Origin: Erysipelotrichaceae bacterium OH741_COT-311
GTDB taxonomy: Bacteria; Bacillota_I; Bacilli_A; Erysipelotrichales; Erysipelotrichaceae
Assembly (NCBI GenBank): GCA_003858585.1
Contig: RQZE01000007.1
Location: forward strand, 120,001 to 152,000
DNA length: 32,000 nucleotides
Direction of reading: 5' to 3'
Part shown: positions 8,107-20,427 of the stretch, piece after piece
Layout of the letters: each line of letters starts with the position of its first letter
How positions within the stretch are numbered: position 1 is the stretch's first letter
Notes under the pieces: model-generated
Seen by the model: the letters and a program-made list of their open reading frames with translations, nothing else
Database searches by the model: none
Told to the model about the DNA's origin: nothing
Made by a program: the position numbers and the translations under genes

Positions 8107-9567
8107 TTATGCAACCATCATTGCAATTGATAAGATAATGATATTTGCAATAGCGATAACAAATAATAACTTCATTACCCATTTTAAGTATGTTGAGTAT
8201 TCAATCTTAGCTGCTCCGATACCACCCATTACAACACCTGAAGTTGGTGTAAACAAGTTGATTAAACCTGAACCAGCACTGAAAATCATAATCATAACAC
8301 TAGCATTGAAGCCTAATGTGTTTGCTAATCCACCCATAACCGGCATTGATAATCCAGCTAATCCTGAAGTAGATGGCACTAAGAAGCTTAATACTAAGTA
8401 TACAATATATGACATTGGTGCAAAGATAAAGCCCGGAACACCTTGTAATAATTTAGAACTTACATCCAAGATATATAAATCCATGTGTGTAGCGTTCATT
8501 ACAATTGTAATACCTCTAGCTGTTGCAATAATTAACGCTACTGATAATAAATCAGCGGCACCAGCCATGAAGTTATCAATAAATTCTTTTTCACTCATTC
8601 TTGCAACCAACGCAACTAAAATAGAAGCGATGATGAACAATGCTGCAAGATCCATGAAGTACCACCAGCCAAGTGGCGTACCAGTTAAACCGGCAGACCA
8701 ACCAAATGCTGCTAAATATGCGTCTTCATTACCACCAAAGATAATGTCTTGGTAGTAAATTAATGAAACAATCATTAATACGAATGTTAATGCAAAGATT
8801 GTTAATACCAATCTATGTTTTGAAGTAAATTCTAAATCTCTGTTTTCATTTTTTGAGAAATGTTCATGCATTACTTCTTGTTCTTGTAATGACAAGATTG
8901 TAGAACCTTTATCACGTTTTACTTTCTTCGCATAACTTAATACAAATAAGATTGCGATAAATGTACTAGTAACCCATAAAATTGCTCCTAAAATCATAAT
9001 TAATGTTGGATTCGGTTCAACCCCTGAGCTTGATAAGGCAGCCATTGCTGCACCTGTTGCAAATGGGTTAATTGTAGAACCTAACACCCCAGTACCAGCT
9101 CCTAATAGTACCGTACCAACTGCAACGATTGAATCAAATCCTGCCGCAACCATTGCTGTTGTAATTAACGCATAGAAACCGATTGTTTCTTCTGCCATAC
9201 CATAAGTTGTACCACCAGCTGAGAATAGAATCATTAATACAACGATTAATACTTCTTCTTTTCCTTTTAATTTCTTAACTAAATGATATACCCCTGCTTC
9301 TAATGCTCCAGTTTTCATAACAATACCAATGAATCCACCGATTGCTAAGATGAAGATAATCAAATCTGAAGCATCTTTAAATCCATTTGGAATTGCCATA
9401 ATAAAATCTGAAAGTTTTGCACCAGTTACTGCTGCAACTTCACCTCCAATTGCCGGATCAATTGCTTGACCATTTAGTAATAGTGAAATTAAGCAAATAA
9501 CACCCATTACTAAAATCAAGATTGAAAAGGCAGATAGAGACGATTTCTTTTTCTTTTGAGTAGCCAT
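8107..9567 (-). CDS. arcD: YfcC/DcuC-type polytopic membrane transporter, probable arginine/ornithine antiporter of the ADI operon
   Basis: 486 aa, highly hydrophobic with many predicted TM helices and a basic N-terminus. It is the last gene of arcA-arcB-arcC-X. The substrate is assigned from context only. Confidence 0.7.
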   Translation of the reverse strand: MATQKKKKSSLSAFSILILVMGVICLISLLLNGQAIDPAIGGEVAAVTGAKLSDFIMAIPNGFKDASDLIIFILAIGGFIGIVMKTGALEAGVYHLVKKLKGKEEVLIVVLMILFSAGGTTYGMAEETIGFYALITTAMVAAGFDSIVAVGTVLLGAGTGVLGSTINPFATGAAMAALSSSGVEPNPTLIMILGAILWVTSTFIAILFVLSYAKKVKRDKGSTILSLQEQEVMHEHFSKNENRDLEFTSKHRLVLTIFALTFVLMIVSLIYYQDIIFGGNEDAYLAAFGWSAGLTGTPLGWWYFMDLAALFIIASILVALVARMSEKEFIDNFMAGAADLLSVALIIATARGITIVMNATHMDLYILDVSSKLLQGVPGFIFAPMSYIVYLVLSFLVPSTSGLAGLSMPVMGGLANTLGFNASVMIMIFSAGSGLINLFTPTSGVVMGGIGAAKIEYSTYLKWVMKLLFVIAIANIIILSIAMMVA

Positions 9568-9584
9568 ACCCTTCCTCCTTTAGC

Positions 9585-10520
9585 TTACTTCTTTATAATA
9601 GTTCCTGTTTCACCACTTAAAGCTGCTTTTGCTCTTTGCAATGAAGTAATTAACGCAACCCCATTGCTAGTAGCTTCTACAAACTCAAGACAAGCTTCCA
9701 CTTTAGGTAACATAGACCCTGGAGCAAAGTGTCCTTCACCAATATATTGTTTAGCTTGCTCAACGTTCATTTCAGCTAGTGATTCCTGATTAGGTTTATT
9801 GTAGTTGATACATACTCGATCTACTGCAGTTAGAATCACTAACATATCTGCTTTAACATCTAAAGCAAGTTTTGCACTAGAACGATCTTTATCAATAACA
9901 GCTGCAACACCTTTTAAGCCATCTTCGGTTTCTACAACCGGAATACCGCCACCACCAACTGTGATTACGATATCACCCAAACTTACAAGTTGTTCAACTA
10001 CTTTTAATTCAACAATTTTTGTAGGTTTTGGGCTTGGTACTACACGACGATATCCACGTCCTGCATCTTCAACAAAGATAAATCCTTTTTCAGCAGCTGT
10101 TTTTTCAGCTTCTTCTTTTGTTAAAAACGATCCAATTGGTTTTGTAGGTTTTGCAAACGCCGGATCTTGAGGATCTACAACTACTTGTGTCACTACACAA
10201 GCAACTTCTTTTGCAACCTTACGTTTCGCAAGTTCTCTTTGAATAGATTGTGTTAAATGATAACCAATGTATCCTTGAGACATTGCACCACATTCCGGAA
10301 ATGGCATGTATGGAGTTTTACCACCATTCAGTGATGAAAACTCCATTGCATTATTGATCATACCTACTTGTGGACCATTTCCATGACCAATAATTACATC
10401 ATATTCTTCTGCCAAATCTACAATTGTTTTTGCAGTTTCTTTTACTAATTCTAATTGTTCTTCCGGAGAATTACCTAACGCATTTCCTCCTAAGGCGATT
10501 ACTAATCTCTTTCTTTCCAT
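9585..10520 (-). CDS. arcC: Carbamate kinase
   Basis: 311 aa. N-terminal VIALGGNAL and HGNGPQVG motifs. Located in the ADI operon. Confidence 0.93.
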   Translation of the reverse strand: MERKRLVIALGGNALGNSPEEQLELVKETAKTIVDLAEEYDVIIGHGNGPQVGMINNAMEFSSLNGGKTPYMPFPECGAMSQGYIGYHLTQSIQRELAKRKVAKEVACVVTQVVVDPQDPAFAKPTKPIGSFLTKEEAEKTAAEKGFIFVEDAGRGYRRVVPSPKPTKIVELKVVEQLVSLGDIVITVGGGGIPVVETEDGLKGVAAVIDKDRSSAKLALDVKADMLVILTAVDRVCINYNKPNQESLAEMNVEQAKQYIGEGHFAPGSMLPKVEACLEFVEATSNGVALITSLQRAKAALSGETGTIIKK

Positions 10521-10532
10521 AGCGACTCTTTT

Positions 10533-11537
10533 CTACTTTAATGTAGCATACATACAAGCTTTAATTGTATGCATACGATTTTCTGCTTCATCAAACACAC
10601 GACTGTGTTTACCTAAGAATACATCATCACTTACTTCCATGCCATTTAAGTCATACTTATCACCAAATTTAGCATGAATTTCTTTCCCGATTGTTGTATT
10701 TAAATCATGGAATGATGGTAAACAGTGTAAGAAGATAACATCTTTATCTGCTTGATCAATTACGTTTTGAGTCACTTTATAAGGACTTAATAATTTAATT
10801 CTTTCTTCCCAAACTGAATCAGGTTCACCCATTGATACCCAAATATCTGTATAGATTGCATGAGCACCCTTTACTGCTTCAGAAACATTTTCAGTAAATT
10901 CAACTTTTGTTCCATGTAGTTTTGCAAATTCTTTTGCTCTTTCTACTAATTTTGGATCAGCCCATAATTCTTTTGGACCACAACCAACATAATCCAACCC
11001 TAATTTTGCGCAAACAACCATTAATGAGTTAGAAACATTATTACGACAATCACCCATAAACACAAACTTTAAGCCTTTTAAACGACCAAAGTTTTCTTTG
11101 ATTGTTAACATATCAGCAATCATTTGTGTTGGGTGGAAATCATCTGTTAAACCATTCCAAACAGGAACTCCAGAATATTTTGCTAGAGCTTCCACTTGTT
11201 TTTGATCAAACCCACGATATTCAATACCATCATAGAAACGACCTAATACTTTAGCAGTATCTTCAATAGACTCTTTTTTACCCATTTGGCTAGAACCTGG
11301 ATCTAAGTATGTAACACCCATACCTAAGTCCATACCAGCTACTTCAAATGAGCAACGAGTACGAGTTGATGTTTTTTCAAACAACAACACAATGTTTTTA
11401 CCCTCTAAATAACGGTGAGGAGTACGAGCAAGTTTAAGTTTTTTAAACTGTTCACTTAAATCAATTAAATAATTAATTTCTTCAGGCGTATAATCTGCTA
11501 AAGCTAATAAACTGCGTCCTTGTAAATTTACTGGCAT
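10533..11537 (-). CDS. arcB: Ornithine carbamoyltransferase (catabolic by context)
   Basis: 334 aa. Carbamoyl-phosphate motif STRTRCSFE, plus HPTQ and HCLP motifs. Confidence 0.94.
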   Translation of the reverse strand: MPVNLQGRSLLALADYTPEEINYLIDLSEQFKKLKLARTPHRYLEGKNIVLLFEKTSTRTRCSFEVAGMDLGMGVTYLDPGSSQMGKKESIEDTAKVLGRFYDGIEYRGFDQKQVEALAKYSGVPVWNGLTDDFHPTQMIADMLTIKENFGRLKGLKFVFMGDCRNNVSNSLMVVCAKLGLDYVGCGPKELWADPKLVERAKEFAKLHGTKVEFTENVSEAVKGAHAIYTDIWVSMGEPDSVWEERIKLLSPYKVTQNVIDQADKDVIFLHCLPSFHDLNTTIGKEIHAKFGDKYDLNGMEVSDDVFLGKHSRVFDEAENRMHTIKACMYATLK

Positions 11538-11568
11538 AATTTTTATCCTCTTCTTTCTGTTAATTTAC

Positions 11569-12798
11569 TTAGTCTTCACGTACAAGTGGCATACTCATAC
11601 AACGAGGTCCACCACGACCAACACATAAGTTATCTGCATCTAATTCTAATACTTCAAAGCCATTTTCTTTTAAATATTTATTTGTAACATAGTTGCGTTT
11701 GTAAACAACAATCTTACCCGGAGCAATTGTTAATGTATTTGAACCATCGTTCCATTGTTCTCTTTCAGCAGCAATTGGATCTCCAGCTCCACATGCAAAT
11801 AATCTAACTTTATCTAAGCCCATGAATTTAGCTAAGATTTCACTTAACTCACCATCATGTTCTTCAATTTTAACATCATGATTTTCACGATCTGCAGTAA
11901 TTGCAAATACTTGTAATGTACCCATGATTCCCGGATGATATGTAAATGCATCATGGTCAATTTGAGTAAACACTGTATCTAAGTGCATCATCGCTCTATT
12001 ATTAGGAATGTTAAATGCTAAGATAGTTTCAATCTTATTTTCCGGATTTTCATAGAACATTTTCATTGCTAATGCTTGAATCGCATCTGCTTGTGTTCTT
12101 TGAGAAATACCAATGAACAATAATTTTTCATTAACGTTTAATACGTCTCCACCTTCGATATGGAATTTATTGTTTCGGCCATATAAATCAGGTACTTTTC
12201 CTGCATATTCAGGATGGAATCTGAAAATGTAATCTGCATAAATTGTTTCACGATTTCTTGTTACAGAATACATTCTGTTAATTACCGCACCATTACCTAC
12301 ACTTGAAAATGGGTCACGAGTAAAGTATAAGTTAGGCATTGGATTTAATAATAAGTAAGATTCTTTATCAATTTTATCTACTAAGAAATTAGTTTTAATA
12401 TCACCTAATTCAGCAAATGTAACACCTGCCATAGTTTTTAAAACTAAATCTTTATTGTTAGTAAATTTATTAAAATATTCTTTTAGAATTTTATGATATG
12501 TTTCAGTATGAATATCACCTTCAGTAATAAACTGATCTAAAAATTGTTCTTTAATTTCAGGATGAGCATCTAATGTCTCAGCCATTAAATCTTCTAAATA
12601 TACAACTTCTACACCGTTATCTCTTAAAATTTGAGCAAAACGATCATGTTCTTCTTGAGCTTTTACCAAGTCAGGAATATCATCAAATAATAATTCTGAT
12701 AAAGTTGTTGGAGTTAAGTTTAATAATTCTTCTCCAGGTCTATGTAGTAATACTTTTTTAAGTGGTTTAATTTCACTTGTTACATGAATTTTTGTCAT
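11569..12798 (-). CDS. arcA: Arginine deiminase
   Basis: The ORF track starts at 12870. I place the start at ATG 12798 (MTKIHVTSEIKPLKKVLLHRPG...) because AAAAGGAGAAC lies 5 nt upstream. The C-terminal catalytic Cys context GGPRCMSMPL is present. Confidence 0.93.
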   Translation of the reverse strand: MTKIHVTSEIKPLKKVLLHRPGEELLNLTPTTLSELLFDDIPDLVKAQEEHDRFAQILRDNGVEVVYLEDLMAETLDAHPEIKEQFLDQFITEGDIHTETYHKILKEYFNKFTNNKDLVLKTMAGVTFAELGDIKTNFLVDKIDKESYLLLNPMPNLYFTRDPFSSVGNGAVINRMYSVTRNRETIYADYIFRFHPEYAGKVPDLYGRNNKFHIEGGDVLNVNEKLLFIGISQRTQADAIQALAMKMFYENPENKIETILAFNIPNNRAMMHLDTVFTQIDHDAFTYHPGIMGTLQVFAITADRENHDVKIEEHDGELSEILAKFMGLDKVRLFACGAGDPIAAEREQWNDGSNTLTIAPGKIVVYKRNYVTNKYLKENGFEVLELDADNLCVGRGGPRCMSMPLVRED

Positions 12799-12930
12799 TT
12801 CGTTCTCCTTTTCTTTTTTATGACATGATGTAAGTAACGGCCGAATTCTCACACCACATAGTTCATACATCTATTTTAAACTTCAATTCATGTAGTTGTA
12901 GGTCAAAAACATAAAATTTTATTGTAAATT

Positions 12931-12960
12931 TAGATAAAAAACGACCAAAACGGTCGTTTA
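12931..12960 (-). terminator. Rho-independent terminator of argS
   Basis: The minus strand reads AAACGACC-GTTTT-GGTCGTTT followed by TTTATC. The stem overlaps the argS stop codon. Confidence 0.75.
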
Positions 12961-14598
12961 CATCTTTTCAGGCGCACTAATCCCTACTAAATCTAAGGCA
13001 TTTGCTAATGTAATCTTTGTCGCAACTAACAAACCTAAACGTTGATTCGTTAGTTCCGGATTACTTGCATCCATGATTTTATGAGCTCCATAAAAACTAT
13101 GGAAATAACTTGCTAATTTTTGAATATAGTTACAAATCTTATTTGGAGAACGTGTGGCAGCAGCATCACCAACCACACCAACAAATTCATTGATATACTT
13201 TAATAAATCAACTTCTTTTTCACTAGTTAATAAATCATATTTTTCAAGTGATTTAAATTCACCAGCTTGTCTTAAAATGGAACAGATACGCGCATGCGCA
13301 TATTGAGCATAGTACACCGGATTTTCATTTGTCTTTTTACGTGCTAAGCCTAAGTCAAAATCTAAATGAGTGTCCACAGCACGACTTACAAAGAAATAAC
13401 GAGCTGCATCAATACCGATATCATCGCATAATTCACGAATAGTAATGGCATTCCCTGTACGCTTACTCATCTTCACTTCCGCACCGTTTTCAACAAGACG
13501 AACCATTTGAATAATATCTACTTCTAAATCTTTTGGACCATAGCCACAAGCTTGGATGGCTGCCACCATACGAGGAATATACCCATGGTGATCTGCACCC
13601 CAAAGATTTACTAATTTTGTATAACCACGTTCAAATTTATACATGTGATTTGCAATATCCGGTGTTAAGTATGTTAATGTGCCATCTGCTTTACGCAATA
13701 CACGATCTTTATCATCGCCCCATTTTGTTGACTTAAACCATAAAGCACCATCTTCTTCATATGTTAAACCCATTTTATTCATGCGTTCAATGATTTCATC
13801 CACACGACCATCATCGTAAAGACCTTGCTCACTTACCCAAGAATCAAAATCACAACGATAGTAATCTAAATCTTCTTTGATTTTTTCCAATTCTTTATTA
13901 CGTCCGGCTTCCTTAAAGAATTCAATACGTCCTTCTTCTTTATGTAGCCAAATATCTCCAAGCTCTTTAGCAAGTTCAATACCGATTTCTTTGACATCTT
14001 GTCCCATGTAACCATCTTCCGGAATATCTACATGAACCCCAAAATATTCAGCATAACGAGCATAAACCGATTTACCTAAGTTAATCATTTGAGCTCCGGC
14101 ATCATTAATGTAATACTCTCTTAAGCAATCATACCCACTCTTCATTAATAAGCGACAAATACAATCACCCCAAGCAGCACCACGAGCATGACCCAAATGC
14201 AAGTTTCCCGTTGGATTCGCACTAACATATTCCACCAAAATGCGTAAGCCATCACCGGTGTTATTTTTACCATAATCACTACCTTCATTAATAACAGTAT
14301 TAATAACAGCAGCTAATGATTCTTTTTTCATCCAGAAGTTAATAAAACCAGGACCTGCAATTTCAATCTTATCTAAATCTTCTACTGTTTGTTCTAGCTC
14401 AGCCTTAATTTCATTTGCAATCATTGCCGGTGCCTTCTTACATACTTTTGCCAAACGCATCGCAATGTTTGTAGAATAATCACCATTGGTATTATCTTTA
14501 GGGATTTCTACCATAATTAAAGAATCATCTTCTACTTGATATAGTTTTAAAACGGCATCTTTAATATTTGTTTTTAATTTTTGATCAATCTTACTCAT
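12958..14598 (-). CDS. argS: Arginine--tRNA ligase
   Basis: The class I HIGH motif reads NPTGNLHLGH and the KMSKS motif reads MSKRTG. I place the start at ATG 14598 (MSKIDQ...) because GGAGGG lies just upstream; the track's earlier ATG sits inside that RBS. Confidence 0.95.
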   Translation of the reverse strand: MSKIDQKLKTNIKDAVLKLYQVEDDSLIMVEIPKDNTNGDYSTNIAMRLAKVCKKAPAMIANEIKAELEQTVEDLDKIEIAGPGFINFWMKKESLAAVINTVINEGSDYGKNNTGDGLRILVEYVSANPTGNLHLGHARGAAWGDCICRLLMKSGYDCLREYYINDAGAQMINLGKSVYARYAEYFGVHVDIPEDGYMGQDVKEIGIELAKELGDIWLHKEEGRIEFFKEAGRNKELEKIKEDLDYYRCDFDSWVSEQGLYDDGRVDEIIERMNKMGLTYEEDGALWFKSTKWGDDKDRVLRKADGTLTYLTPDIANHMYKFERGYTKLVNLWGADHHGYIPRMVAAIQACGYGPKDLEVDIIQMVRLVENGAEVKMSKRTGNAITIRELCDDIGIDAARYFFVSRAVDTHLDFDLGLARKKTNENPVYYAQYAHARICSILRQAGEFKSLEKYDLLTSEKEVDLLKYINEFVGVVGDAAATRSPNKICNYIQKLASYFHSFYGAHKIMDASNPELTNQRLGLLVATKITLANALDLVGISAPEKM

Positions 14599-14610
14599 CT
14601 TACCCTCCAT

Positions 14611-14645
14611 ATAAAATAAAAACTGTTAATATGATTAACAGTTTA
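14611..14645 (-). terminator. Terminator-like hairpin between tRNA-Arg and the argS RBS
   Basis: The minus strand reads AACTGTTAAT-CAT-ATTAACAGTT (a perfect 10-bp stem with only 2 GC pairs) followed by TTTATTTTAT. The GGAGGG RBS of argS comes immediately after. Confidence 0.6.
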
Positions 14646-14654
14646 ATTTACTAT

Positions 14655-14731
14655 TGGCGCGCCCAGTAGGACTTGAACCCGCAACCTTTTGATCCGTAGT
14701 CAAACGCTCTATCCAGTTGAGCTATGGGCGC
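14655..14731 (-). tRNA. tRNA-Arg (anticodon ACG), copy 1, CCA encoded
   Basis: Reverse complement: GCGCCCATAGCTCAACTGGATAGAGCGTTTGACTACGGATCAAAAGGTTGCGGGTTCAAGTCCTACTGGGCGCGCCA. It folds as a cloverleaf with anticodon loop CUACGGA and discriminator G73. There is one C-A mismatch in the T stem. Identical to copy 2. Confidence 0.93.
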
Positions 14732-14743
14732 ATCTTCCTTATA

Positions 14744-14772
14744 ATAATAACAAATTAAATTCAGTTAATCAA
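14744..14772 (-). promoter_or_regulatory. Candidate promoter for tRNA-Arg copy 1 (TTGATT-17-TATTAT with upstream TG)
   Basis: The minus strand reads TTGATTAACTGAATTTAATTTGTTATTAT, directly after the T-box terminator U-tract. The -10 ends 12 nt before the tRNA 5' end. AT-rich DNA makes chance matches likely. Confidence 0.35.
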
Positions 14773-14773
14773 T

Positions 14774-14990
14774 AAAAAAAATCTCTTTTTACAAAAGAGA
14801 CGAAAAAACCGCGGTACCACTCTAATTGCCAGTATAAAAACTGACCACCTCTTTTTTAACGCAAAGTTACGCCTACCTTACTTTCATACAGCAGGATCTC
14901 CAAAGCTCGTTTCATCTAATCACCATATCTTCTTCCACCATACAAGACTCGCTTTTATGTCACTTAGATTACTACTCTTTTTCATCGATA
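14774..14990 (-). promoter_or_regulatory. T-box leader RNA (tRNA-sensing transcription attenuator) with intrinsic terminator
   Basis: Minus-strand elements, in order: K-turn AUCGAUGA; S-turn strand AGUAGUA; AG bulge AGCGAGUC; distal loop UGGUGGAAG; specifier strand GAAACGAG (14913..14906); stem III. The T-box motif AGAGUGGUACCGCGG (14823..14809) forms the antiterminator AGAG[UGGUACC]GCG..CGUCUCU. The terminator is UCUCUUUU-GUA-AAAAGAGA plus U8 (14802..14774). Confidence 0.9.
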
Positions 14991-14995
14991 CATCA

Positions 14996-15024
14996 ACATT
15001 ACATGAAACCTATCACAATGTCAA
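14996..15024 (-). promoter_or_regulatory. Sigma-A promoter of the T-box leader (TTGACA-17-TAATGT)
   Basis: The minus strand reads TTGACATTGTGATAGGTTTCATGTAATGT, immediately downstream of the tRNA-operon terminator. Confidence 0.65.
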
Positions 15025-15043: not shown

Positions 15044-15072
15044 AAATAAAAAACACTAGAATTTATCTAGTG
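15044..15072 (-). terminator. Rho-independent terminator of the 7-tRNA operon
   Basis: The minus strand reads CACTAGA-TAAAT-TCTAGTG followed by TTTTTTATTT, 14 nt after tRNA-Phe. Confidence 0.8.
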
Positions 15073-15085
15073 CATTTTCTACCAA

Positions 15086-15161
15086 TGGTGGTCCCGGCCG
15101 GAATCGAACCAGCGACACAAGGATTTTCAGTCCTTTGCTCTACCGACTGAGCTACAGGACC
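15086..15161 (-). tRNA. tRNA-Phe (GAA)
   Basis: Reverse complement: GGTCCTGTAGCTCAGTCGGTAGAGCAAAGGACTGAAAATCCTTGTGTCGCTGGTTCGATTCCGGCCGGGACCACCA. Anticodon loop CUGAAAA. Confidence 0.95.
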
Positions 15162-15163
15162 AT

Positions 15164-15240
<77 letters not shown>

Positions 15241-15271
15241 ATATTGTGTAACAGACGTTACATAAATTGAA

Positions 15272-15362
15272 TGGCGGAGGAACTGGGATTCGAACCCAGG
15301 CGCCAGTTTCCCGACCTACCGGTTTTCAAGACCGGACCCTTCAACCACTTGGGTATTCCTCC
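15272..15362 (-). tRNA. tRNA-Ser (UGA), long variable arm
   Basis: Reverse complement: GGAGGAATACCCAAGTGGTTGAAGGGTCCGGTCTTGAAAACCGGTAGGTCGGGAAACTGGCGCCTGGGTTCGAATCCCAGTTCCTCCGCCA. Confidence 0.94.
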
Positions 15363-15379
15363 ATAATTTGTCAATTGAT

Positions 15380-15456
15380 TGGTGGACCCTGTAGGACTCG
15401 AACCTACGACCAACCGGTTATGAGCCGGTAGCTCTGACCAACTGAGCTAAGGGTCC
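15380..15456 (-). tRNA. tRNA with CAU anticodon, probably tRNA-Ile2 (lysidine type); elongator Met not excluded
   Basis: Reverse complement: GGACCCTTAGCTCAGTTGGTCAGAGCTACCGGCTCATAACCGGTTGGTCGTAGGTTCGAGTCCTACAGGGTCCACCA. The body resembles ileX-type tRNAs as I recall them. The anticodon alone cannot decide. Confidence 0.8.
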
Positions 15457-15465
15457 TCACTAAAA

Positions 15466-15542
15466 TGGTAGCGAGGGTGGGACTCGAACCCACGACCTTC
15501 CGGGTATGAACCGAACGCTCTAGCCAACTAAGCTACCTCGCC
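15466..15542 (-). tRNA. Elongator tRNA-Met (CAU)
   Basis: Reverse complement: GGCGAGGTAGCTTAGTTGGCTAGAGCGTTCGGTTCATACCCGGAAGGTCGTGGGTTCGAGTCCCACCCTCGCTACCA. It has a G1-U72 pair and a UUCAUAC loop, like Bacillus elongator Met. Confidence 0.88.
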
Positions 15543-15555
15543 AGCTTAATTTAAC

Positions 15556-15632
15556 TGGTCGGGATGACAGGATTTGAACCTGCGACCCCTTGATCCCAAA
15601 TCAAGTGCACTACCAAGCTGTGCTACATCCCG
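15556..15632 (-). tRNA. tRNA-Pro (UGG)
   Basis: Reverse complement: CGGGATGTAGCACAGCTTGGTAGTGCACTTGATTTGGGATCAAGGGGTCGCAGGTTCAAATCCTGTCATCCCGACCA. Confidence 0.94.
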
Positions 15633-15642
15633 TTAAATTAAA

Positions 15643-15719
15643 TGGCGCGCCCAGTAGGACTTGAACCCGCAACCTTTTGATCCGTAGTCAAACGCTCTAT
15701 CCAGTTGAGCTATGGGCGC
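15643..15719 (-). tRNA. tRNA-Arg (ACG), copy 2, first gene of the 7-tRNA operon
   Basis: The 77-nt sequence is identical to 14655..14731. Confidence 0.93.
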
Positions 15720-15746
15720 ACATACACTAGTTAACAGTGCTTAATT

Positions 15747-15775
15747 ATGATAACAAATTTTAATCGTTATTGCAA
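15747..15775 (-). promoter_or_regulatory. Candidate promoter of the Arg-Pro-Met-Ile2-Ser-fMet-Phe tRNA operon (TTGCAA-17-TATCAT, TG extended)
   Basis: The minus strand reads TTGCAATAACGATTAAAATTTGTTATCAT, about 28 nt upstream of tRNA-Arg copy 2. Confidence 0.5.
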
Positions 15776-15825
15776 GTTATTTTTGCAAATTAATTAAAAT
15801 AATTTTTATCACCAAACTTAGAAAA

Positions 15826-15853
15826 ATTAAAAAAAATCTTTCTTCAAAGATTC
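15826..15853 (-). terminator. Rho-independent terminator of the Cys-Leu tRNA unit
   Basis: The minus strand reads AATCTTT-GAAG-AAAGATT followed by TTTTTTTAATTTTT, 12 nt after tRNA-Leu. Confidence 0.75.
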
Positions 15854-15864
15854 TTTTAACGAAA

Positions 15865-15951
15865 TGGTGGGGATGAAGGGACTTGAACCCTTACGATGTT
15901 TCCATCACCGGATTTTAAGTCCGATGCGTCTACCTATTCCGCCACATCCCC
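15865..15951 (-). tRNA. tRNA-Leu (UAA), long variable arm
   Basis: Reverse complement: GGGGATGTGGCGGAATAGGTAGACGCATCGGACTTAAAATCCGGTGATGGAAACATCGTAAGGGTTCAAGTCCCTTCATCCCCACCA. Confidence 0.94.
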
Positions 15952-15955
15952 ATTC

Positions 15956-16029
15956 TGGAGGTTCCTATCAGATTTGAACTGATGATCACAGAGTTGCAGT
16001 CTATTGCCTTACCACTTGGCTAAGGAACC
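15956..16029 (-). tRNA. tRNA-Cys (GCA)
   Basis: Reverse complement: GGTTCCTTAGCCAAGTGGTAAGGCAATAGACTGCAACTCTGTGATCATCAGTTCAAATCTGATAGGAACCTCCA. Confidence 0.93.
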
Positions 16030-16151: not shown

Positions 16152-16186
16152 TAAAAAGAAAAATGGATGTCCTTTCAGACATCCAT
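16152..16186 (-). terminator. Rho-independent terminator of the pot operon
   Basis: The minus strand reads ATGGATGTC-TGAAAG-GACATCCAT followed by TTTTCTTTTT, immediately after the potD stop. Confidence 0.85.
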
Positions 16187-16190
16187 ACAA

Positions 16191-17279
16191 CTATTTGTTT
16201 TTTACCTTAATCCATAGTGCAGCTAATTTTTCTTTTAATAGCTCTTTATATTGGAATACTTCATCTAATTCATAGTTACTTCTTGGTAAATATGCTTCAT
16301 TACCAAAATATTGACCACCTTCACCACTTAATTCTTCAACAACTTGTTTGTTACTTGAAGTATAACCAACTGTTAATGAGTTATCTTTTGCCGCTTCATA
16401 AGATAACATATAATTTAAAAATTCATGAGCTAAATCCGGACATTGTGCATTCTTTGGAATTACCATACCATCAATCCACATGTTTGTTCCACCCTTTGGC
16501 ATACTATACGCCATATCTTCGTTTTCCGATAAGATGTAAGCGGCATCTCCGCTATAAACAACCGCAATGTCTTTTTCACCATTTGCCATTGCATCAATCA
16601 CTTCATCGGTTACATAAGCCGGATTAATTGTATCATTTACTTTTAATAACCATTGATATGCAGCTTCAATTTCTTCTTCATTTTCTGTATTCATAGAATA
16701 TCCCAATGCTTTAAATGCCATCATAAATGAATCACGTTCTGAATCATATAAGAACGCACGATCTTTTAATGATTCATCTAAAAAAATGTTATAACCTAAT
16801 TCTTCTACTTTTGCAGGATCAATCTTTTCTTTGTTATAAACAATTCCTACTGAACCCCACATATATGGAATTGCATAGTCATTATTTGGATCGTATGGTA
16901 AATTCTTTACTTCATCAGCAATTAATGACATGTTAGGAATTTTTGTTAAATCTAATTTTAATAATAAATCTTCTTTAATCATACGCTCAATTGTATAATC
17001 TGAAGGAATAATAATATCATAGCTATTACCACCTAATAGTTTTGTATACATAGCTTCATTTGAATCAAACAATGAATAATTCACTTTAGCGTTGTATGCT
17101 TTTTCAAAGTTTGAGATTACATGTTCACCAATGTATTCTCCCCAGTTATAGAAATTTAATACATTACAACCAAATTTCTCTTTTGCATCAAATACAACAG
17201 TTGTTGAATCTTTCTTACTACAAGCAACCATTGCAAATGCAAGAATACTTAAAATTACTACCTTAAACACTTTCTTCAT
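16191..17279 (-). CDS. potD: Spermidine/putrescine ABC transporter substrate-binding lipoprotein
   Basis: 362 aa. Lipoprotein signal ILSILAFAMVAC. PotD/PotF-type periplasmic-binding fold. Last gene of potABCD. Confidence 0.88.
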   Translation of the reverse strand: MKKVFKVVILSILAFAMVACSKKDSTTVVFDAKEKFGCNVLNFYNWGEYIGEHVISNFEKAYNAKVNYSLFDSNEAMYTKLLGGNSYDIIIPSDYTIERMIKEDLLLKLDLTKIPNMSLIADEVKNLPYDPNNDYAIPYMWGSVGIVYNKEKIDPAKVEELGYNIFLDESLKDRAFLYDSERDSFMMAFKALGYSMNTENEEEIEAAYQWLLKVNDTINPAYVTDEVIDAMANGEKDIAVVYSGDAAYILSENEDMAYSMPKGGTNMWIDGMVIPKNAQCPDLAHEFLNYMLSYEAAKDNSLTVGYTSSNKQVVEELSGEGGQYFGNEAYLPRSNYELDEVFQYKELLKEKLAALWIKVKNK

Positions 17280-18066
17280 ATTTCTTTCTCCCTCTTTCTT
17301 TAATCAACGGTACTACATTTACAATAATTAGCACAATTGTAATTACGAAAATGATAATACTTGATAATGCATTAATACTTGGGTTAATACGTTTATACAT
17401 CGTATAAACATATATAGATATATTATTTACTCCAGGACCTGTTGTAAAGTATGAAATTACAAAGTCATCAAATGACATCGTAAAAGCAATCAGTGCCCCT
17501 GAAATAATACCCGGCATAATTTGTGGAATGATAACTTTTGTTAAAGCTTGCATCGGGGTACAACCTAAATCTAATGCCGCTTCAGCTAAGTTTTCATCAA
17601 GCTGTCTTAACTTTGGAATAATGGATAACATTACATATGGAATACAAAACACAATATGAGCAATCAATAATGTCATAAATCCTGTTTCAATCATAAAAGA
17701 TGAAAAGAACAACATAAATCCAATTGCTGTGACAATTTCCGGATTCATCATCGGTAAGTTATTTACCTGTGTTACAAACTCTTTTACAATGCGTCTTGAT
17801 TTACTTAAACCAATCGCAGTAATGGTTCCTACGATCGTTGAAACCACCGTTGCAATCAAAGCAATCACAATTGTAAAATATAAAGCTTCCATCATCGTAC
17901 GATTTTCAAACATCTTTTCATACCACTGTAAGGAAAAGCCGGTAAAGTTTGTTAATGACTTTGACTCATTAAAACTAAACACCACAACATAAAGAATTGG
18001 TGCATAGAAAAAGATTAACGCAAGCACTAAATACGCTTTGGCAAAAATACTATTTCCTCTTTTCAT
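17263..18066 (-). CDS. potC: Spermidine/putrescine ABC transporter permease
   Basis: 267 aa with about 6 TM helices. The EAA-loop region reads EAALDLGCTPMQALTKVIIP. Confidence 0.88.
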   Translation of the reverse strand: MKRGNSIFAKAYLVLALIFFYAPILYVVVFSFNESKSLTNFTGFSLQWYEKMFENRTMMEALYFTIVIALIATVVSTIVGTITAIGLSKSRRIVKEFVTQVNNLPMMNPEIVTAIGFMLFFSSFMIETGFMTLLIAHIVFCIPYVMLSIIPKLRQLDENLAEAALDLGCTPMQALTKVIIPQIMPGIISGALIAFTMSFDDFVISYFTTGPGVNNISIYVYTMYKRINPSINALSSIIIFVITIVLIIVNVVPLIKERGRKKYEESV

Positions 18067-18848
18067 TATTTCGCCTCCTTAACATCTTTATCTAATTTTT
18101 TCGTTAAGTACATTGAAGCTAAAATAACAAACGCCATAATCAAGGAAATCGCACTGCCAAAGTTCCAATCTCCTGTTGATACAAAATAATGTTCAATCAA
18201 ATTACCAATCAAGACATAATCTCCTCCACCCAATAGCTTTGGAATAAAGAAACTTGAGACTGCCGGTAAAAAGACTAAAGTAATCCCTGTAATCACCCCT
18301 GGAAGTGATAACGGTAAGGTTACTTTTAAAAACGTTTGAAAGCGATTGGCACCTAAATCAGCACTTGCCGAAAGTAAGCTTTGATCCATTTTCGCTAAGG
18401 ATGTATATACCTGCAAAATCATAAATGGAATAAAGTTATATATCATACCAATATATACTTTTAATTCGTTACTAATTGGCATATTTAATAACAAACCACG
18501 CCATGCATATGTACGCACCAACATATTTGTCCACATTGGAAATGTAATTAATAAAATCATCATGTTACGCTTACTTACATTGAGCTTTGAAATAAAATAA
18601 GCACAAGGATAACCCAATATAATACAAGCAACTGTTGTAAAAAACGCTAGACGTAAAGAGCGTACTAATACGTTTGGAAAAATCGAGTCTTCAAAGAAAC
18701 GTGTAAAATTGGAAAATGTAAATTGTAGTGTTAATACCGAATTCCCCTTTGTAGTAAATGCATATAAGATAATCATAAGCATTGGTACTACAATGAATAT
18801 ACTTATCCATCCGACGTATGGATATACCAGCCTTCTAAATCCCTTCAT
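18066..18848 (-). CDS. potB: Spermidine/putrescine ABC transporter permease
   Basis: 260 aa. The EAA-loop region reads SASADLGANRFQTFLKVTLP. Translationally coupled to potC. Confidence 0.88.
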   Translation of the reverse strand: MKGFRRLVYPYVGWISIFIVVPMLMIILYAFTTKGNSVLTLQFTFSNFTRFFEDSIFPNVLVRSLRLAFFTTVACIILGYPCAYFISKLNVSKRNMMILLITFPMWTNMLVRTYAWRGLLLNMPISNELKVYIGMIYNFIPFMILQVYTSLAKMDQSLLSASADLGANRFQTFLKVTLPLSLPGVITGITLVFLPAVSSFFIPKLLGGGDYVLIGNLIEHYFVSTGDWNFGSAISLIMAFVILASMYLTKKLDKDVKEAK

Positions 18849-18849
18849 C

Positions 18850-20418
18850 TTAAAAACCCATCTTACTCATAACATGAATGTCTTCTTTCGAGAATTTTAA
18901 ACCAACCTTCGCATTCACTTCGACATAATCTGTCGTATGTATTTTGAATTCACGTCCTTTTGTTGCAAAGGTAATCTTATAATCCCCTTCCACAATATTT
19001 TCTTCATCAAAATCATACTTTACATCCCAAATTTCAACACGTGAATCATCTTCTAATGACCACGCCGTTGCATTTGCCCAACGCTTTAAATCCGTATCTA
19101 ACGCAATACTTTCTTTAATTTCATCTACAGTCTTATAAAAATCAAATGCTTGTACTGCTTCTTCATTATTTACATCTTCTGTATATACAGGTTCTACAAC
19201 TGTGATGGTAACTGTAATACTTGTACCATTTGCTGTTGTAAAGGTACATGGATATTGTCCTTTTGCATTTAAAACGTTGTAACTCACTTTACTAATAGAA
19301 ATATCTTCATTATCAAAATCCCAAGCCTGTGCATTAGCACGAGCAATGACTTCACTATTGTTTAAAGAATCTACATCCTCTAAATCCAAGTAGAAATCAC
19401 TGGCACTAATCTTTTCTTTGGCTGCATCATTTACAATATCTTTATTACCTAAGACATGCATCGTTACAGTCTTGGATGTCCCCGAAACTGTCTCCACTAT
19501 AATTTCATAATGAACACCTTTAAATAAGACAGACTTAACTTCACCATTTAATAACCCATGATTACGAGCCACAATATCAATATCTTCCGGACGAATTACA
19601 ATATCGACTTCTTCGTTTTCTTTAAAACCAAAATCTACACAATCGTATTTTTTCTCATCAAATTCAACAACATAATCCTGAATCATTTTTCCATCAATGA
19701 TATTACTCTCTCCAATAAAACGGGCAACATACTCATTTTCCGGTTCATTGTAAATTTCTTCTGGAGATCCAATTTGTTGAATTTCACCATTTTTCATCAC
19801 GACAATCTTATCTGACATTGTTAAAGCTTCTTCTTGATCATGTGTAACAAAGATAAAAGTAATTCCTACTTCTTTTTGAATCTTTTTAAGCTCTAACTGC
19901 ATTTCTTTACGTAATTTTAAATCCAAAGCCCCTAAAGGTTCATCCAGCAGTAAGACACCAGGTTCATTCACCAACGCTCGAGCAATTGCTACACGCTGTT
20001 GTTGACCACCTGATAACTGTGTTACATCACGTTTGCCATAGCCTTCTAAACCTACAAGTGATAACATACGATTTACTTTTTGCTCAATAATATCTTTTGA
20101 AATCTTTTTAAGTTTTAATCCAAAGGCAATGTTGTCATATACATTTAAATGAGGAAACAATGCATACTTTTGAAACACCGTATTAATATCACGCTTATAT
20201 GCAGGAGTATTGGTAATATCTTCGCCATCAAAAATCACTTGTCCTTGATCTTGTTCTAAAAATCCACCTAAAATACGCAATAATGTTGTTTTCCCACAAC
20301 CGGAAGGTCCGAGTAATGTTACAAATTCATTTTCATAAATATCTAAATTAATGCCCTTTAAAACCACTTGTCCATCAAATTGTTTTACTATATTTTTAAA
20401 TTGTATTAACTTTTTCAT
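18850..20418 (-). CDS. potA: Spermidine/putrescine ABC transporter ATPase with a ~170-aa insertion in the C-terminal TOBE-like domain
   Basis: Walker [10 protein letters not shown], signature LSGGQQQR, Walker B LLLDEP. I place the start at ATG 20418 (MKKLIQF), 5 nt after AAGGAG; the track's GTG at 20424 overlaps the RBS. At 522 aa it is markedly longer than E. coli PotA. Confidence 0.9.
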
Positions 20419-20427
20419 ACGCACTCC

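Follow-up and report, generated by a model that had tools for sequence, protein, structure and literature searches.

A T-box riboswitch specific for arginine probably controls, in the window (the whole 32,000-nucleotide stretch of DNA analysed here), a bicistronic operon in which the first gene is the sensed tRNA, tRNA-Arg(ACG), and the second is argS, the gene for the enzyme that charges it. The order on the minus strand is T-box leader, tRNA-Arg(ACG), an 11-bp AU-rich hairpin and then argS (Table 1). A tRNA gene and no protein-coding frame thus comes next after the leader, with argS second, which is a departure from the T-box units described to date. T-box riboswitches have been described as regulators of protein genes, and the prevailing view of bacterial tRNA genes is that growth rate and the stringent response control them globally rather than individually. 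The sequence-only reading of this DNA knew of no described case in which a tRNA directly follows a T-box, and our literature searches, which found no description of a T-box controlling a tRNA gene, agree.

Organization of the argS locus

All of the elements named in the sequence-only reading were recovered on the minus strand at the positions it gave, among them the 42-nt gap between the U-run of the T-box terminator and the tRNA gene, and the ribosome-binding site and start codon of argS. The argS product is a class I arginyl-tRNA synthetase with the domains Arg_tRNA_synt_N, tRNA-synt_1d and DALR_1, all above Pfam cut-offs. Upstream, the intrinsic terminator at 15053..15073 insulates the T-box unit from an operon of seven tRNA genes. 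Directly downstream of argS lies an arginine deiminase operon, which had been overlooked; this neighbour suggests a setting in which arginine is burnt for energy and the charging of the major arginine tRNA needs protection.

Table 1. Features of the T-box, tRNA-Arg and argS unit, in window coordinates
Feature	Position	Strand	Basis
Intrinsic terminator closing the upstream 7-tRNA operon	15053..15073	-	8 pairs and T-run; -11.9 kcal/mol, z -4.5
Promoter P1: -35 TTGACA (15024..15019), 17 nt, TAATGT; alternative 15-nt spacer and TGTAAT	14996..15024	-	Sequence reading; conservation
T-box leader (RF00230); specifier CGA 14909..14907; T-box sequence AGUGGUACCGCG 14821..14810	14793..14994	-	Rfam, TBDB rule, compensatory changes
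T-box terminator: stem 14802..14782 and U8 14781..14774	14774..14802	-	Folding; equivalents in relatives
Probable internal promoter P2: TTGATT-17-TATTAT, upstream TG	14744..14772	-	Promoter scan; positional counterparts in L002-L006
tRNA-Arg(ACG) gene, CCA encoded, cognate to the leader specifier	14655..14731	-	ARAGORN, Rfam
Post-tRNA hairpin: 11-bp AU-rich stem 14644..14620, U-rich tail UUAUUUUAU	14611..14644	-	Folding; relatives
argS: RBS GGAGGG 14608..14603, ATG 14598, stop 12960..12958, 546 aa	12958..14608	-	ORF, Pfam
argS terminator, end of the transcription unit	12939..12959	-	Terminator scan; -13.9 kcal/mol, z -5.2

The T-box leader

The leader had been called a T-box from its hallmarks, and a covariance-model scan bears this out: 14994..14793 matches the full RF00230 model (positions 1-219) with 113.7 bits (E 1e-24), above the Rfam gathering score of 93 bits. 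The specifier region reads GAA-A-CGA-G, with the arginine codon CGA followed by a purine, both in the Rfam alignment and by the TBDB rule, which takes the specifier codon as nucleotides 2-4 of the bulge, counting back from its 3' end. A threonine frame (GAA-ACG-A) was rejected because the alignment and the rule give CGA and then G, and because both downstream genes are arginine genes. The specifier matches the host tRNA-Arg(ACG), which is present in two copies and in which I34 is expected. This tRNA reads 71% of the Arg codons, which makes the isoacceptor being sensed the major one.

The UGGU bulge of the T-box sequence faces G73-CCA, with a U-G wobble at the N position of UGGN, where TBDB accepts a wobble. 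Both recognition contacts include a non-Watson-Crick pair, specifier A opposite I34 in one and the U of UGGU opposite the discriminator base, G73, in the other. In T-boxes, uncharged cognate tRNA makes the specifier and NCCA contacts and thereby stabilises the antiterminator; in the window, CGUCUCU is common to the antiterminator and terminator helices, the terminator sharing the 5' arm, so that the two are mutually exclusive. The terminator itself is present with its U8 run, as had been read, and its fold is weak (9 bp with two G-C pairs, -7.3 kcal/mol, z -1.8), the weakest of the clade; the corresponding helices of relatives are stronger, at -9.7 to -12.9 kcal/mol (z -4 to -6), carry changes in both arms of the upper stem and keep tails of U6-U8. 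In a comparison of eight leaders, changes on both sides keep 15 of the 46 predicted leader pairs, most of them in Stems I and II, and as judged from sequence comparison the window's leader remains under structural selection. A long-range pairing given by RNAalifold (columns 98-103 with 206-211) was set aside as an artefact, being invariant and off the T-box model.

The embedded tRNA-Arg gene

The tRNA gene is intact, as first read, its cloverleaf called by ARAGORN and its CCA end encoded, with a score of 60.7 bits against RF00005. The elements by which ArgRS identifies E. coli tRNA-Arg are A20, C35 and G/U36; the embedded gene has A20 in its D-loop (AACUGGAUA), and C35 and G36 in its ACG anticodon. 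A second tRNA-Arg(ACG) gene, 100% identical to the first and missed by the sequence-only reading, lies at 15719..15643 in the tRNA operon about 1 kb upstream.

Conservation among relatives

Nine Anaerorhabdus-clade genomes (L001-L009), with ArgRS proteins that are 72-99% identical, share the arrangement of T-box, tRNA-Arg(ACG) and argS. The nine leaders score 111-139 bits against RF00230, all above threshold, the specifier region and the T-box sequence are invariant across the clade, and acceptor-stem and T-stem changes of the embedded tRNA in L007-L009 are compensated. The most compact architectures are those of L008 and L009, where the tRNA begins 7-10 nt past the terminator U-run, and where the spacers between tRNA and argS start codon, of 21 and 34 nt, contain no fold and no promoter-like or terminator-like site. 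In these two loci the sole plus-strand promoter-like site is the P1 equivalent (11/12) and the sole terminator-like site is the T-box terminator. From one promoter and one terminator we infer that tRNA and argS are co-transcribed under the T-box.

A hidden promoter serving argS alone was considered and rejected: the scan finds none between tRNA and ATG in the window, consistent with the earlier remark that no other argS promoter was evident, and the 21-nt spacer of L008 leaves no room for one, the only -10-like strings of that region being ones that would start transcription within the tRNA or the ribosome-binding site.

Eighty argS loci, L010-L080 included, were also compared by Rfam scan, a check proposed with the original reading. 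No T-box directly before argS without a tRNA was found among them, and the leader is thus found only together with the tRNA; the other T-boxes in these loci either follow argS or are encoded on the other strand. In many Erysipelotrichaceae a tRNA-Arg gene adjoins argS without a T-box, in either orientation, as in 13 further loci of the 80. L015, which groups with L008 and L009 in a neighbour-joining tree, is without the T-box-tRNA-argS arrangement, and in the outgroup L017 argS has a promoter region of its own, which comes after a tRNA-Arg gene with a terminator.

Promoters and the post-tRNA hairpin

The leader promoter, P1, had been described as good. This holds for its -35 element, a perfect TTGACA, but not for its -10, TAATGT, with 3/6 consensus matches, and the promoter scan did not list the site; an alternative -10, TGTAAT, at the 15-nt spacer has 5/6 matches. 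P1 is taken as real because 9/9 related genomes keep TTGACA at an equal distance. The second promoter suspected in front of the tRNA, P2, was recovered by the scan together with an upstream TG. It is similar to the promoter of the tRNA operon (15775..15747), and counterparts (TTGAAA/TTGCAA-17-TAAGAT/TAATAT with TG) occupy the equivalent position in L002-L006; L007-L009 have none. Promoter-like matches are not enriched in the AT-rich window (9 found against 13.1 expected from shuffles), so that P2 rests on its conservation among fairly close relatives and no promoter is claimed on consensus alone. Apart from P2, the scan of the window found no promoter-like site on the minus strand between 14744 and 14598.

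The perfect AU-rich hairpin noted after the tRNA is present with its U-rich tail, although its stem has 11 bp rather than 10 (14644..14634 with 14630..14620, loop CAT; -10.3 kcal/mol, z -3.3). It folds no less stably than the window's T-box terminator, contains only two G-C pairs, has an interrupted tail (UUUUUAUUUU) and was not called by the terminator scan of the window. A hairpin with a differing upper stem occupies the same position in L002-L007, the L004 equivalent being called terminator-like, and it is absent in L008 and L009. The element is likely to be a leaky terminator, a 5' stabiliser of processed argS mRNA, or both. A derivation of its 5' arm from the tRNA D-arm, with which it has AACUG in common, was rejected, the similarity being too short.

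P2 and the hairpin raise the question of whether the T-box matters to argS in the window's lineage at all. In one alternative, already put forward in the sequence-only reading as an inserted cassette, P2, the tRNA and the hairpin form an autonomous unit, argS is transcribed essentially by read-through from P2, and the T-box plays little or no part. The likeness of P2 and its L002-L006 counterparts to a genuine tRNA-operon promoter is consistent with this, as are a hairpin and U-rich tail as stable as T-box terminators and, in L004, terminator-like by scan, the order of elements in the L017 outgroup, and the weak T-box terminator of the window. However, with no promoter-like site between hairpin and argS, the synthetase gene still needs transcripts that pass the tRNA, and the same lineages keep an above-threshold leader, compensatory changes and an intact terminator, which are unexpected for a leader that is bypassed. 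Moreover, P2 is missing in L007-L009 and the hairpin also in L008 and L009, and these cassette-free forms show the tRNA to be integral to the operon. The P2-like site and the hairpin stand as conserved features of the window and L002-L006, but the proposed uncoupling of argS does not, since argS is without a promoter of its own and the leader is under selection; we regard this explanation as unlikely.

Recurrence in metagenomes

The arrangement is not confined to arginine, and recurs independently with other cognate pairs. A metagenome scan revealed loci in which a T-box(AAC) precedes 1-4 tRNA-Asn(GUU) genes and then, as in L135, gatC-gatA-gatB-aspS; all 13 of the Asn-type leaders tested exceed the Rfam threshold (118-146 bits). 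Up to four tandem tRNA copies, all Asn, lie behind the leader, and in L101 a T-box precedes tRNA-Asn genes only, after which comes a second T-box. Some of the Asn leaders are without any U-tract, and in these it may be maturation of the tRNA, and not termination, that the switch gates. For phenylalanine, a T-box(UUC) is followed by tRNA-Phe(GAA) and pheS, with a leader of 74 bits (E 1e-14), below the Rfam threshold, as is a second Phe leader at 63.9 bits. An ArgG case has a leader fragment (L094) that is clipped by the contig end and scores 35 bits, also below threshold. The Phe and ArgG cases are regarded as no more than probable. Some 50 further metagenome matches were not flagged as T-boxes by nhmmer, and the four inspected (L082, L088, L105 and L110) are ordinary tRNA arrays with no T-box.

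These loci bear on a second alternative, namely that argS is under ordinary T-box regulation and the embedded tRNA is a passenger, co-transcribed but with no selective value in its regulation. The 13 loci with adjacent tRNA-Arg and argS but no T-box suggest that the linkage predates the leader and could be historical, and an identical, constitutive copy of the tRNA lies 1 kb away. Yet embedded tRNA and specifier are cognate in each of three separate systems (Arg, Asn and Phe), for which the chance expectation is about (1/20)^3; the Asn system maintains its multiple copies of a single tRNA; the first T-box of L101 has tRNA-Asn genes and nothing else before the second; and the Arg arrangement persists where ArgRS identity has fallen to 72%, with compensatory changes in the tRNA stems. 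A mere passenger is accordingly very unlikely. The last alternative considered, also raised in the sequence-only reading, that the leader is a decaying orphan remnant that no longer switches, finds its sole support in the weak window terminator and is rejected as hardly credible by the comparative data, that is, by leaders well above threshold in all nine genomes, the invariant specifier region and T-box sequence, the 15 compensated pairs, and the conservation of the U6-U8 terminators and P1.

Taken more broadly, a T-box followed by cognate tRNA genes and a tRNA-handling enzyme (Arg/ArgRS, Asn/GatCAB-AspRS, Phe/PheRS) may represent a general operon class of uncultured Bacilli, in which transcription of a tRNA gene would be set by the tRNA's own aminoacylation through a positive loop and an enzyme-closed negative loop. 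We found no published account of such a class, and consider the case for one so general to be evenly balanced.

A model for the operon

In the bicistronic operon that we favor, P1 would drive the complete, CGA-specific leader. When uncharged tRNA-Arg accumulates, it would pair with the specifier and the UGGU bulge and stabilise the antiterminator, allowing RNA polymerase to read through into the tRNA and argS. RNase P would then free the leader at the tRNA 5' end, while an endonuclease would cut the AU-rich spacer that follows CCA, with exonucleases then trimming the tRNA 3' end, leaving an argS mRNA that starts near the hairpin. RNase Z is an unlikely agent of the 3' cut because CCA is encoded, a feature that in B. 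subtilis makes cleavage by this enzyme unlikely. Of the earlier suggestion that one attenuator co-regulates tRNA and synthetase, the co-regulation is supported by an order kept in nine genomes and by the single promoter and terminator of L008 and L009, whereas excision by RNase Z is doubtful. Co-transcription and tRNA-dependent read-through are predictions from sequence.

The window lineage appears to be a composite, in which P2 would probably provide T-box-independent tRNA expression, and the hairpin with its U-rich tail would probably stop part of the transcripts and yield an excess of tRNA over argS mRNA; the hairpin may also shield the 5' end of the processed message. Since the hairpin matches or exceeds the T-box terminator in stability, only a small share of argS transcription may be regulated. 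Newly made tRNA-Arg, being uncharged, would feed back positively on the switch, and ArgRS made with it would charge the tRNA, closing a negative loop and holding the proportion of tRNA to enzyme, with the constitutive second copy in the neighbouring tRNA operon as a baseline supply. In the compact forms, a tRNA left unprocessed 10-20 nt from the Shine-Dalgarno sequence could additionally serve as a putative cis operator for its synthetase. Some points run counter to the operon reading. Boosting a tRNA that is already uncharged is not obviously useful, and in the window a P2-like site lies between leader and tRNA and the T-box terminator is the clade's weakest. The non-Watson-Crick pairs in both recognition contacts and the absence of the arrangement from L015 also count against it.

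If the operon reading is true, a riboswitch regulates the synthesis of its own ligand. We know of no earlier amino-acid-specific transcriptional control of a tRNA gene, and a T-box with its own effector tRNA first would be the first such case known to us, as well as a natural circuit that couples positive and negative feedback. Annotation of T-box regulons should then change, since pipelines that assign the next ORF would skip the tRNA. The arrangement may also explain the linkage of tRNA-Arg and argS in many Erysipelotrichaceae, and its recurrence with Asn and probably Phe suggests a design principle, the stoichiometric, on-demand co-production of a tRNA and its enzyme. Anaerorhabdus furcosa ATCC 25662 (L004) is a cultured member of the clade, which makes the idea directly testable.

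Comparison with known systems

Canonical T-boxes control tyrS, thrS and glyQS of B. subtilis, and Arg-specific T-boxes precede argS in some Firmicutes. T-box-regulated aminoacyl-tRNA synthetase genes are the canonical class of such units (PMC2494555, PMC7778990). The unit described here shares with them the RF00230 leader, the Stem I specifier, the UGGN bulge, the competing antiterminator and terminator, and a downstream synthetase for the same amino acid, but their leader abuts the ORF, whereas here the effector tRNA would be the first gene transcribed. Reportedly, a tRNA-Asn-dependent T-box controls the aspS-gatCAB transamidation operon of C. acetobutylicum, in which no tRNA gene is said to lie. 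For amidotransferase genes, no upstream T-boxes were reported (Wels et al. 2008). The C. acetobutylicum unit resembles L135 in having an Asn T-box before genes of the indirect Asn-tRNA pathway, and differs in that the metagenomic loci hold 1-4 tRNA-Asn genes between leader and gatC.

Mixed tRNA-mRNA operons are known from E. coli, where thrU-tyrU-glyT-thrT-tufB is transcribed from a growth-rate-controlled promoter. There, too, one transcript joins tRNAs to a downstream protein gene of the translation machinery, and RNase P and endonuclease cleavage set the tRNAs free, but no riboswitch is known to take part, and the tRNAs are not known to serve the encoded protein as cognate substrate or a cis-regulator as effector. 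The E. coli thrS operator is a tRNA-Thr mimic in the mRNA leader that is bound by ThrRS. Like the embedded tRNA, of which the CCA end in L008 is 21 nt from the ATG, it is a tRNA-shaped element just before the ribosome-binding site of the cognate synthetase; unlike it, the operator is an unexcised, protein-binding mimic, whereas here the element is an entire tRNA gene, the same in sequence as a functional copy. Finally, B. subtilis thrZ has three leaders in tandem, and such tandem T-box and riboswitch systems find parallels in the two serial T-boxes of L101 and in the window, where, past a conditional terminator, a second, terminator-like hairpin precedes the ORF. The difference is that here tRNA genes lie between the points of termination, so that the two gates would partition tRNA output from mRNA output.

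T-box leader, tRNA gene and argS in a proposed single unit

The covariance-model check bears out the T-box leader proposed by the sequence-only reading, as a full-length Rfam match above the gathering score, and the leader's own terminator and U8 run are in place. On its 3' side the specifier bulge has the sequence GAA-A-CGA-G, in which the TBDB rule, taking the specifier codon as nucleotides 2-4 from the bulge 3' end (PMC7778990), selects an arginine codon. The sequence CGUCUCU is common to terminator and antiterminator, and the window's terminator is weak. The intact, CCA-encoding tRNA-Arg(ACG) gene claimed 42 nt past the terminator U-run was called by both ARAGORN and Rfam; the AU-rich hairpin behind it is also present, with a stem one pair longer than the 10 bp first counted. 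All of these parts (T-box leader, tRNA, ArgRS gene) belong to known families.

P1, the promoter preceding the leader, had been rated good. Its -35 element stands, being kept in all nine relatives that carry the arrangement, but the -10 is weak, whether taken as TAATGT (17-nt spacer) or as TGTAAT (15-nt spacer). A minus-strand scan recovered the suspected promoter before the tRNA, P2, as the sole promoter-like site between T-box terminator and argS; between tRNA-Arg(ACG) and argS it showed none, in keeping with the earlier claim that argS has no other evident promoter, and promoter-like matches in this window scan were not above shuffled expectation.

Features of the argS region and its neighbours in the window
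Feature	Coordinates	Strand	Basis or remark
Terminator of ABC transporter operon	16186..16163	minus	
Nine tRNA genes: Cys, Leu, Arg(ACG), Pro, Met, Met, Ser, Met, Phe	16029..15086	minus	
Second tRNA-Arg(ACG)	15719..15643	minus	100% identical over 77 nt to T-box-linked copy; flanks differ
Terminator closing upstream tRNA genes	15073..15053	minus	
P1, -35 TTGACA	15024..15019	minus	sequence reading
T-box leader, full-length Rfam match	14994..14793	minus	113.7 bits vs gathering score 93
Specifier CGA (Arg)	14909..14907	minus	Rfam alignment and TBDB rule
T-box sequence AGUGGUACCGCG	14821..14810	minus	
T-box terminator, then U8	14802..14782	minus	
P2, TTGATT-17-TATTAT, TG upstream	14772..14744	minus	promoter scan
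tRNA-Arg(ACG), CCA encoded	14731..14655	minus	ARAGORN and Rfam
Post-tRNA hairpin, 11 bp, AU-rich, then U-rich tail	14644..14620	minus	-10.3 kcal/mol, z -3.3
argS RBS GGAGGG	14608..14603	minus	
argS, ATG at 14598	14598..12958	minus	ArgRS domains by Pfam
Strong terminator after argS	12959..12939	minus	
arcA, arginine deiminase	12870..11569	minus	
arcB, ornithine carbamoyltransferase	11537..10533	minus	
arcC, carbamate kinase	10520..9585	minus	
DcuC-family carrier	9567..8107	minus	

Conservation, compact and composite forms

Relatives were collected by ArgRS protein search (80 loci, L001-L080, one genome per species) and screened by ARAGORN and a T-box motif search, then by Rfam. The window belongs to an Erysipelotrichaceae MAG (L001, ArgRS 99% identical) near Anaerorhabdus. 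The comparison that the sequence-only reading had suggested shows the order T-box, tRNA-Arg(ACG), argS kept throughout L001-L009, across ArgRS identities from 99% to 72% and with leaders of 111-139 bits (Rfam). One of the nine, L004, is the cultured Anaerorhabdus furcosa ATCC 25662 (NZ_FUWY01000005.1, contig positions 7420-15057). Common to all nine are the TTGACA -35, the T-box sequence, a U6-U8 terminator, a GCCA-ending tRNA and argS. The specifier region GAAACGAGCUUUGGAGAU is invariant, and 15 leader pairs are preserved with changes on both sides (RNAalifold, eight distinct leaders); the relatives' T-box terminators (-9.7 to -12.9 kcal/mol, z -4 to -6) differ in the sequence of their upper stems. 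Compensated changes also occur in the acceptor and T stems of the L007-L009 tRNA, in which T-stem pair 50-64 is standard (CCUGC or UCUGC); a C50-A64 mismatch (GCGGG/CCUAC) is found in both window copies, L002-L006, L022 and L027. Judged from these alignments, purifying selection acts on both leader and tRNA, which rules out the proposal that the leader is an orphan remnant.

The spacers around the tRNA take different forms. They are shortest in L008 and L009, with 7 and 10 nt from U-run to tRNA, and 21 and 34 unstructured nt from CCA to ATG. Whole-region scans of these two loci give a single plus-strand promoter-like site, P1 (TTGACA-17-TATTAT or TATGAT, 11/12 matches), and a single terminator-like site, that of the T-box. 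As read from these scans, tRNA and argS would be transcribed there only from P1 through the T-box, which supports the co-transcription part of the proposal that one attenuator governs tRNA and synthetase.

L007 is likewise compact before the tRNA, lacks P2 and carries a post-tRNA hairpin within 55 nt from CCA to ATG. The window and L002-L006 have P2 5' and the hairpin 3' of the tRNA, with 56-61 nt from CCA to ATG and a U-run-to-tRNA gap longer in L002-L006 than the window's 42 nt. P2 keeps its 17-nt spacer and TG in all of these, reading TTGAAA/TTGCAA-17-TAAGAT/TAATAT in L002-L006, and resembles the neighbouring tRNA-operon promoter (15775..15747). The hairpin retains its ACUG/CAGU base, and its upper stem differs among relatives in a compensated manner. 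The unit of the window lineage is therefore, on sequence grounds, composite: the tRNA would be fed by both T-box-gated P1 and P2, and argS by read-through of the hairpin. P2 and hairpin could lower the regulated share of argS transcription.

Origin of the linkage

T-box leaders directly before argS on the same strand were absent from L010-L080, and the T-box-argS order without tRNA that had been envisaged for relatives was thus not encountered there. In 13 further Erysipelotrichaceae loci a tRNA-Arg (ACG or UCU) lies at most 200 nt upstream of argS without a T-box, co-directional in five (L017, L022, L024, L027, L063) and divergent in eight (L016, L021, L023, L037, L040, L043, L047, L049). L063 has a CCA-less tRNA-Arg, a GC-rich hairpin with U6 and, after 21 nt, into which a promoter would not fit, the argS RBS; tRNA-Arg is likewise followed by a hairpin and U-run in L022 and L027, and the L017 spacer (116 nt) has its own promoter-like region. 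In a neighbour-joining tree of ArgRS the T-box carriers cluster, with L015, which has no T-box, nested inside. The simplest history would be an old tRNA-Arg/argS linkage in the Erysipelotrichaceae, to which the T-box was later added upstream in the Anaerorhabdus clade; the post-tRNA hairpin is probably the original terminator of the tRNA.

Genomic setting and proposed mechanism

The genes directly past the argS terminator make up an arginine deiminase pathway cluster (8107..12870, minus). Arginine is thus probably an energy source for the cell, giving it reason to defend tRNA-Arg charging. Linkage of argS and arc genes is also known in Lactococcus lactis. CGU, CGC and CGA, all decoded by tRNA-Arg(ACG), make up 71% of the window's Arg codons, CGA itself being rare (6%). 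The second tRNA-Arg(ACG) heads a seven-tRNA unit (Arg, Pro, Met, Met, Ser, Met, Phe), set apart from tRNA-Cys and tRNA-Leu by a terminator-like hairpin with T-run (~15853..15829) and a promoter-like TTGCAA-17-TATCAT. Because this twin lies in a separate unit, the genome would have a constitutive copy besides the T-box-linked one. The tRNA genes are in turn preceded by an ABC transporter operon (16191..20424, minus) encoding a TOBE-domain ATPase, two permeases and a solute-binding protein.

The order of parts, the want of alternative promoters, conservation and covariation are observed; switching and processing can be proposed from them. By the established T-box mechanism, uncharged tRNA-Arg would stabilise the antiterminator, with I34-C35-G36 on CGA and G73-CCA on UGGU with wobble, and polymerase would read the tRNA and then argS. 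From general RNA processing, RNase P would release the tRNA 5' end, whereas the 3' side would require endonucleolytic cleavage within the AU-rich spacer and subsequent exonucleolytic trimming; RNase Z, named in the original proposal, is disfavoured because CCA is encoded. The hairpin may terminate partially, yielding tRNA in excess of mRNA, and may also shield the 5' end of processed argS mRNA. Newly made tRNA, being uncharged, would provide positive feedback and its charging by ArgRS negative feedback, with the constitutive twin supplying a baseline.

Recurrence with other tRNAs

Metagenome contigs were searched for a T-box sequence followed 45-75 nt on by a GCUC-type tRNA D-arm; at least 120 stretches matched and 80 loci were examined, triaged with an nhmmer profile from 18 Rfam-confirmed leaders and with ARAGORN. 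With a single D-arm type and a single spacing, the counts are biased lower bounds. A full leader lies directly before tRNA-Asn(GUU) in at least about 20 contigs (among the matches listed, L083, L085, L091, L097, L100, L101, L109, L111, L112, L119, L120, L128, L131, L135, L145-L147, L151, L152, L160), and Rfam confirms 13/13 leaders tested (118-146 bits). Among the matches listed, all Asn leaders have GAA-N-AAC at the specifier position and one to four tandem tRNA-Asn(GUU) genes behind them, with no other tRNA type. A hairpin and U-run usually follow, then an RBS and gatC; in L135, whose GatB relatives carry 'Bacilli bacterium' MAG labels, the operon runs gatC-gatA-gatB-aspS, so that by gene content the whole indirect Asn-tRNA pathway is placed behind its own substrate tRNA. 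L101 (889..1570) has two tRNA-Asn genes and a second T-box in place of the hairpin before gatC. In L112 (6628..7051) and L147 (5993..6406), ordered Ile-Glu-[T-box]-Asn x3, the leader begins 22-25 nt past tRNA-Glu and thus appears to be a conditional terminator placed within a tRNA operon. The terminator-type helix (UUCGUCC...GGACGAA) lacks a U-run before tRNA-Asn in L111, L145, L152, L120, L097, L109, L135 and L160, where the switch may act through factor-dependent termination or by controlling how the tRNA matures.

T-box-like leaders that lack Stem II and fall under the Rfam threshold (74 and 63.9 bits) directly precede tRNA-Phe(GAA). That of L084 (1050..2424; 74 bits, E 1e-14, specifier UUC) is followed by the tRNA directly and then by pheS; L092 (3690..5231) and L108 (380..1769) are alike in leader and tRNA, and their next ORF encodes 373 aa with a class II PheRS core and FDX-ACB domain, a layout that recalls the monomeric PheRS of mitochondria. 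In L094 (9494..10960, minus) a T-box 3' part (35 bits, clipped by the contig end) precedes a tRNA-like element without CCA, Arg(GCG) by ARAGORN and 42.6 bits as Rfam tRNA, and then argG (argininosuccinate synthase). In three unrelated systems (Arg, Asn and, probably, Phe) leader and embedded tRNA form a cognate pair, so the tRNA is hardly a random passenger.

The sequence-only reading knew of no described case of a tRNA gene directly behind a T-box leader, and no description of a T-box, tRNA, enzyme assembly was found in the searchable literature, which cannot prove absence; Wels et al. (2008) found no T-boxes before amidotransferase genes. The parts are familiar, their assembly recurs independently, and a cultured representative exists in which it can be tested.
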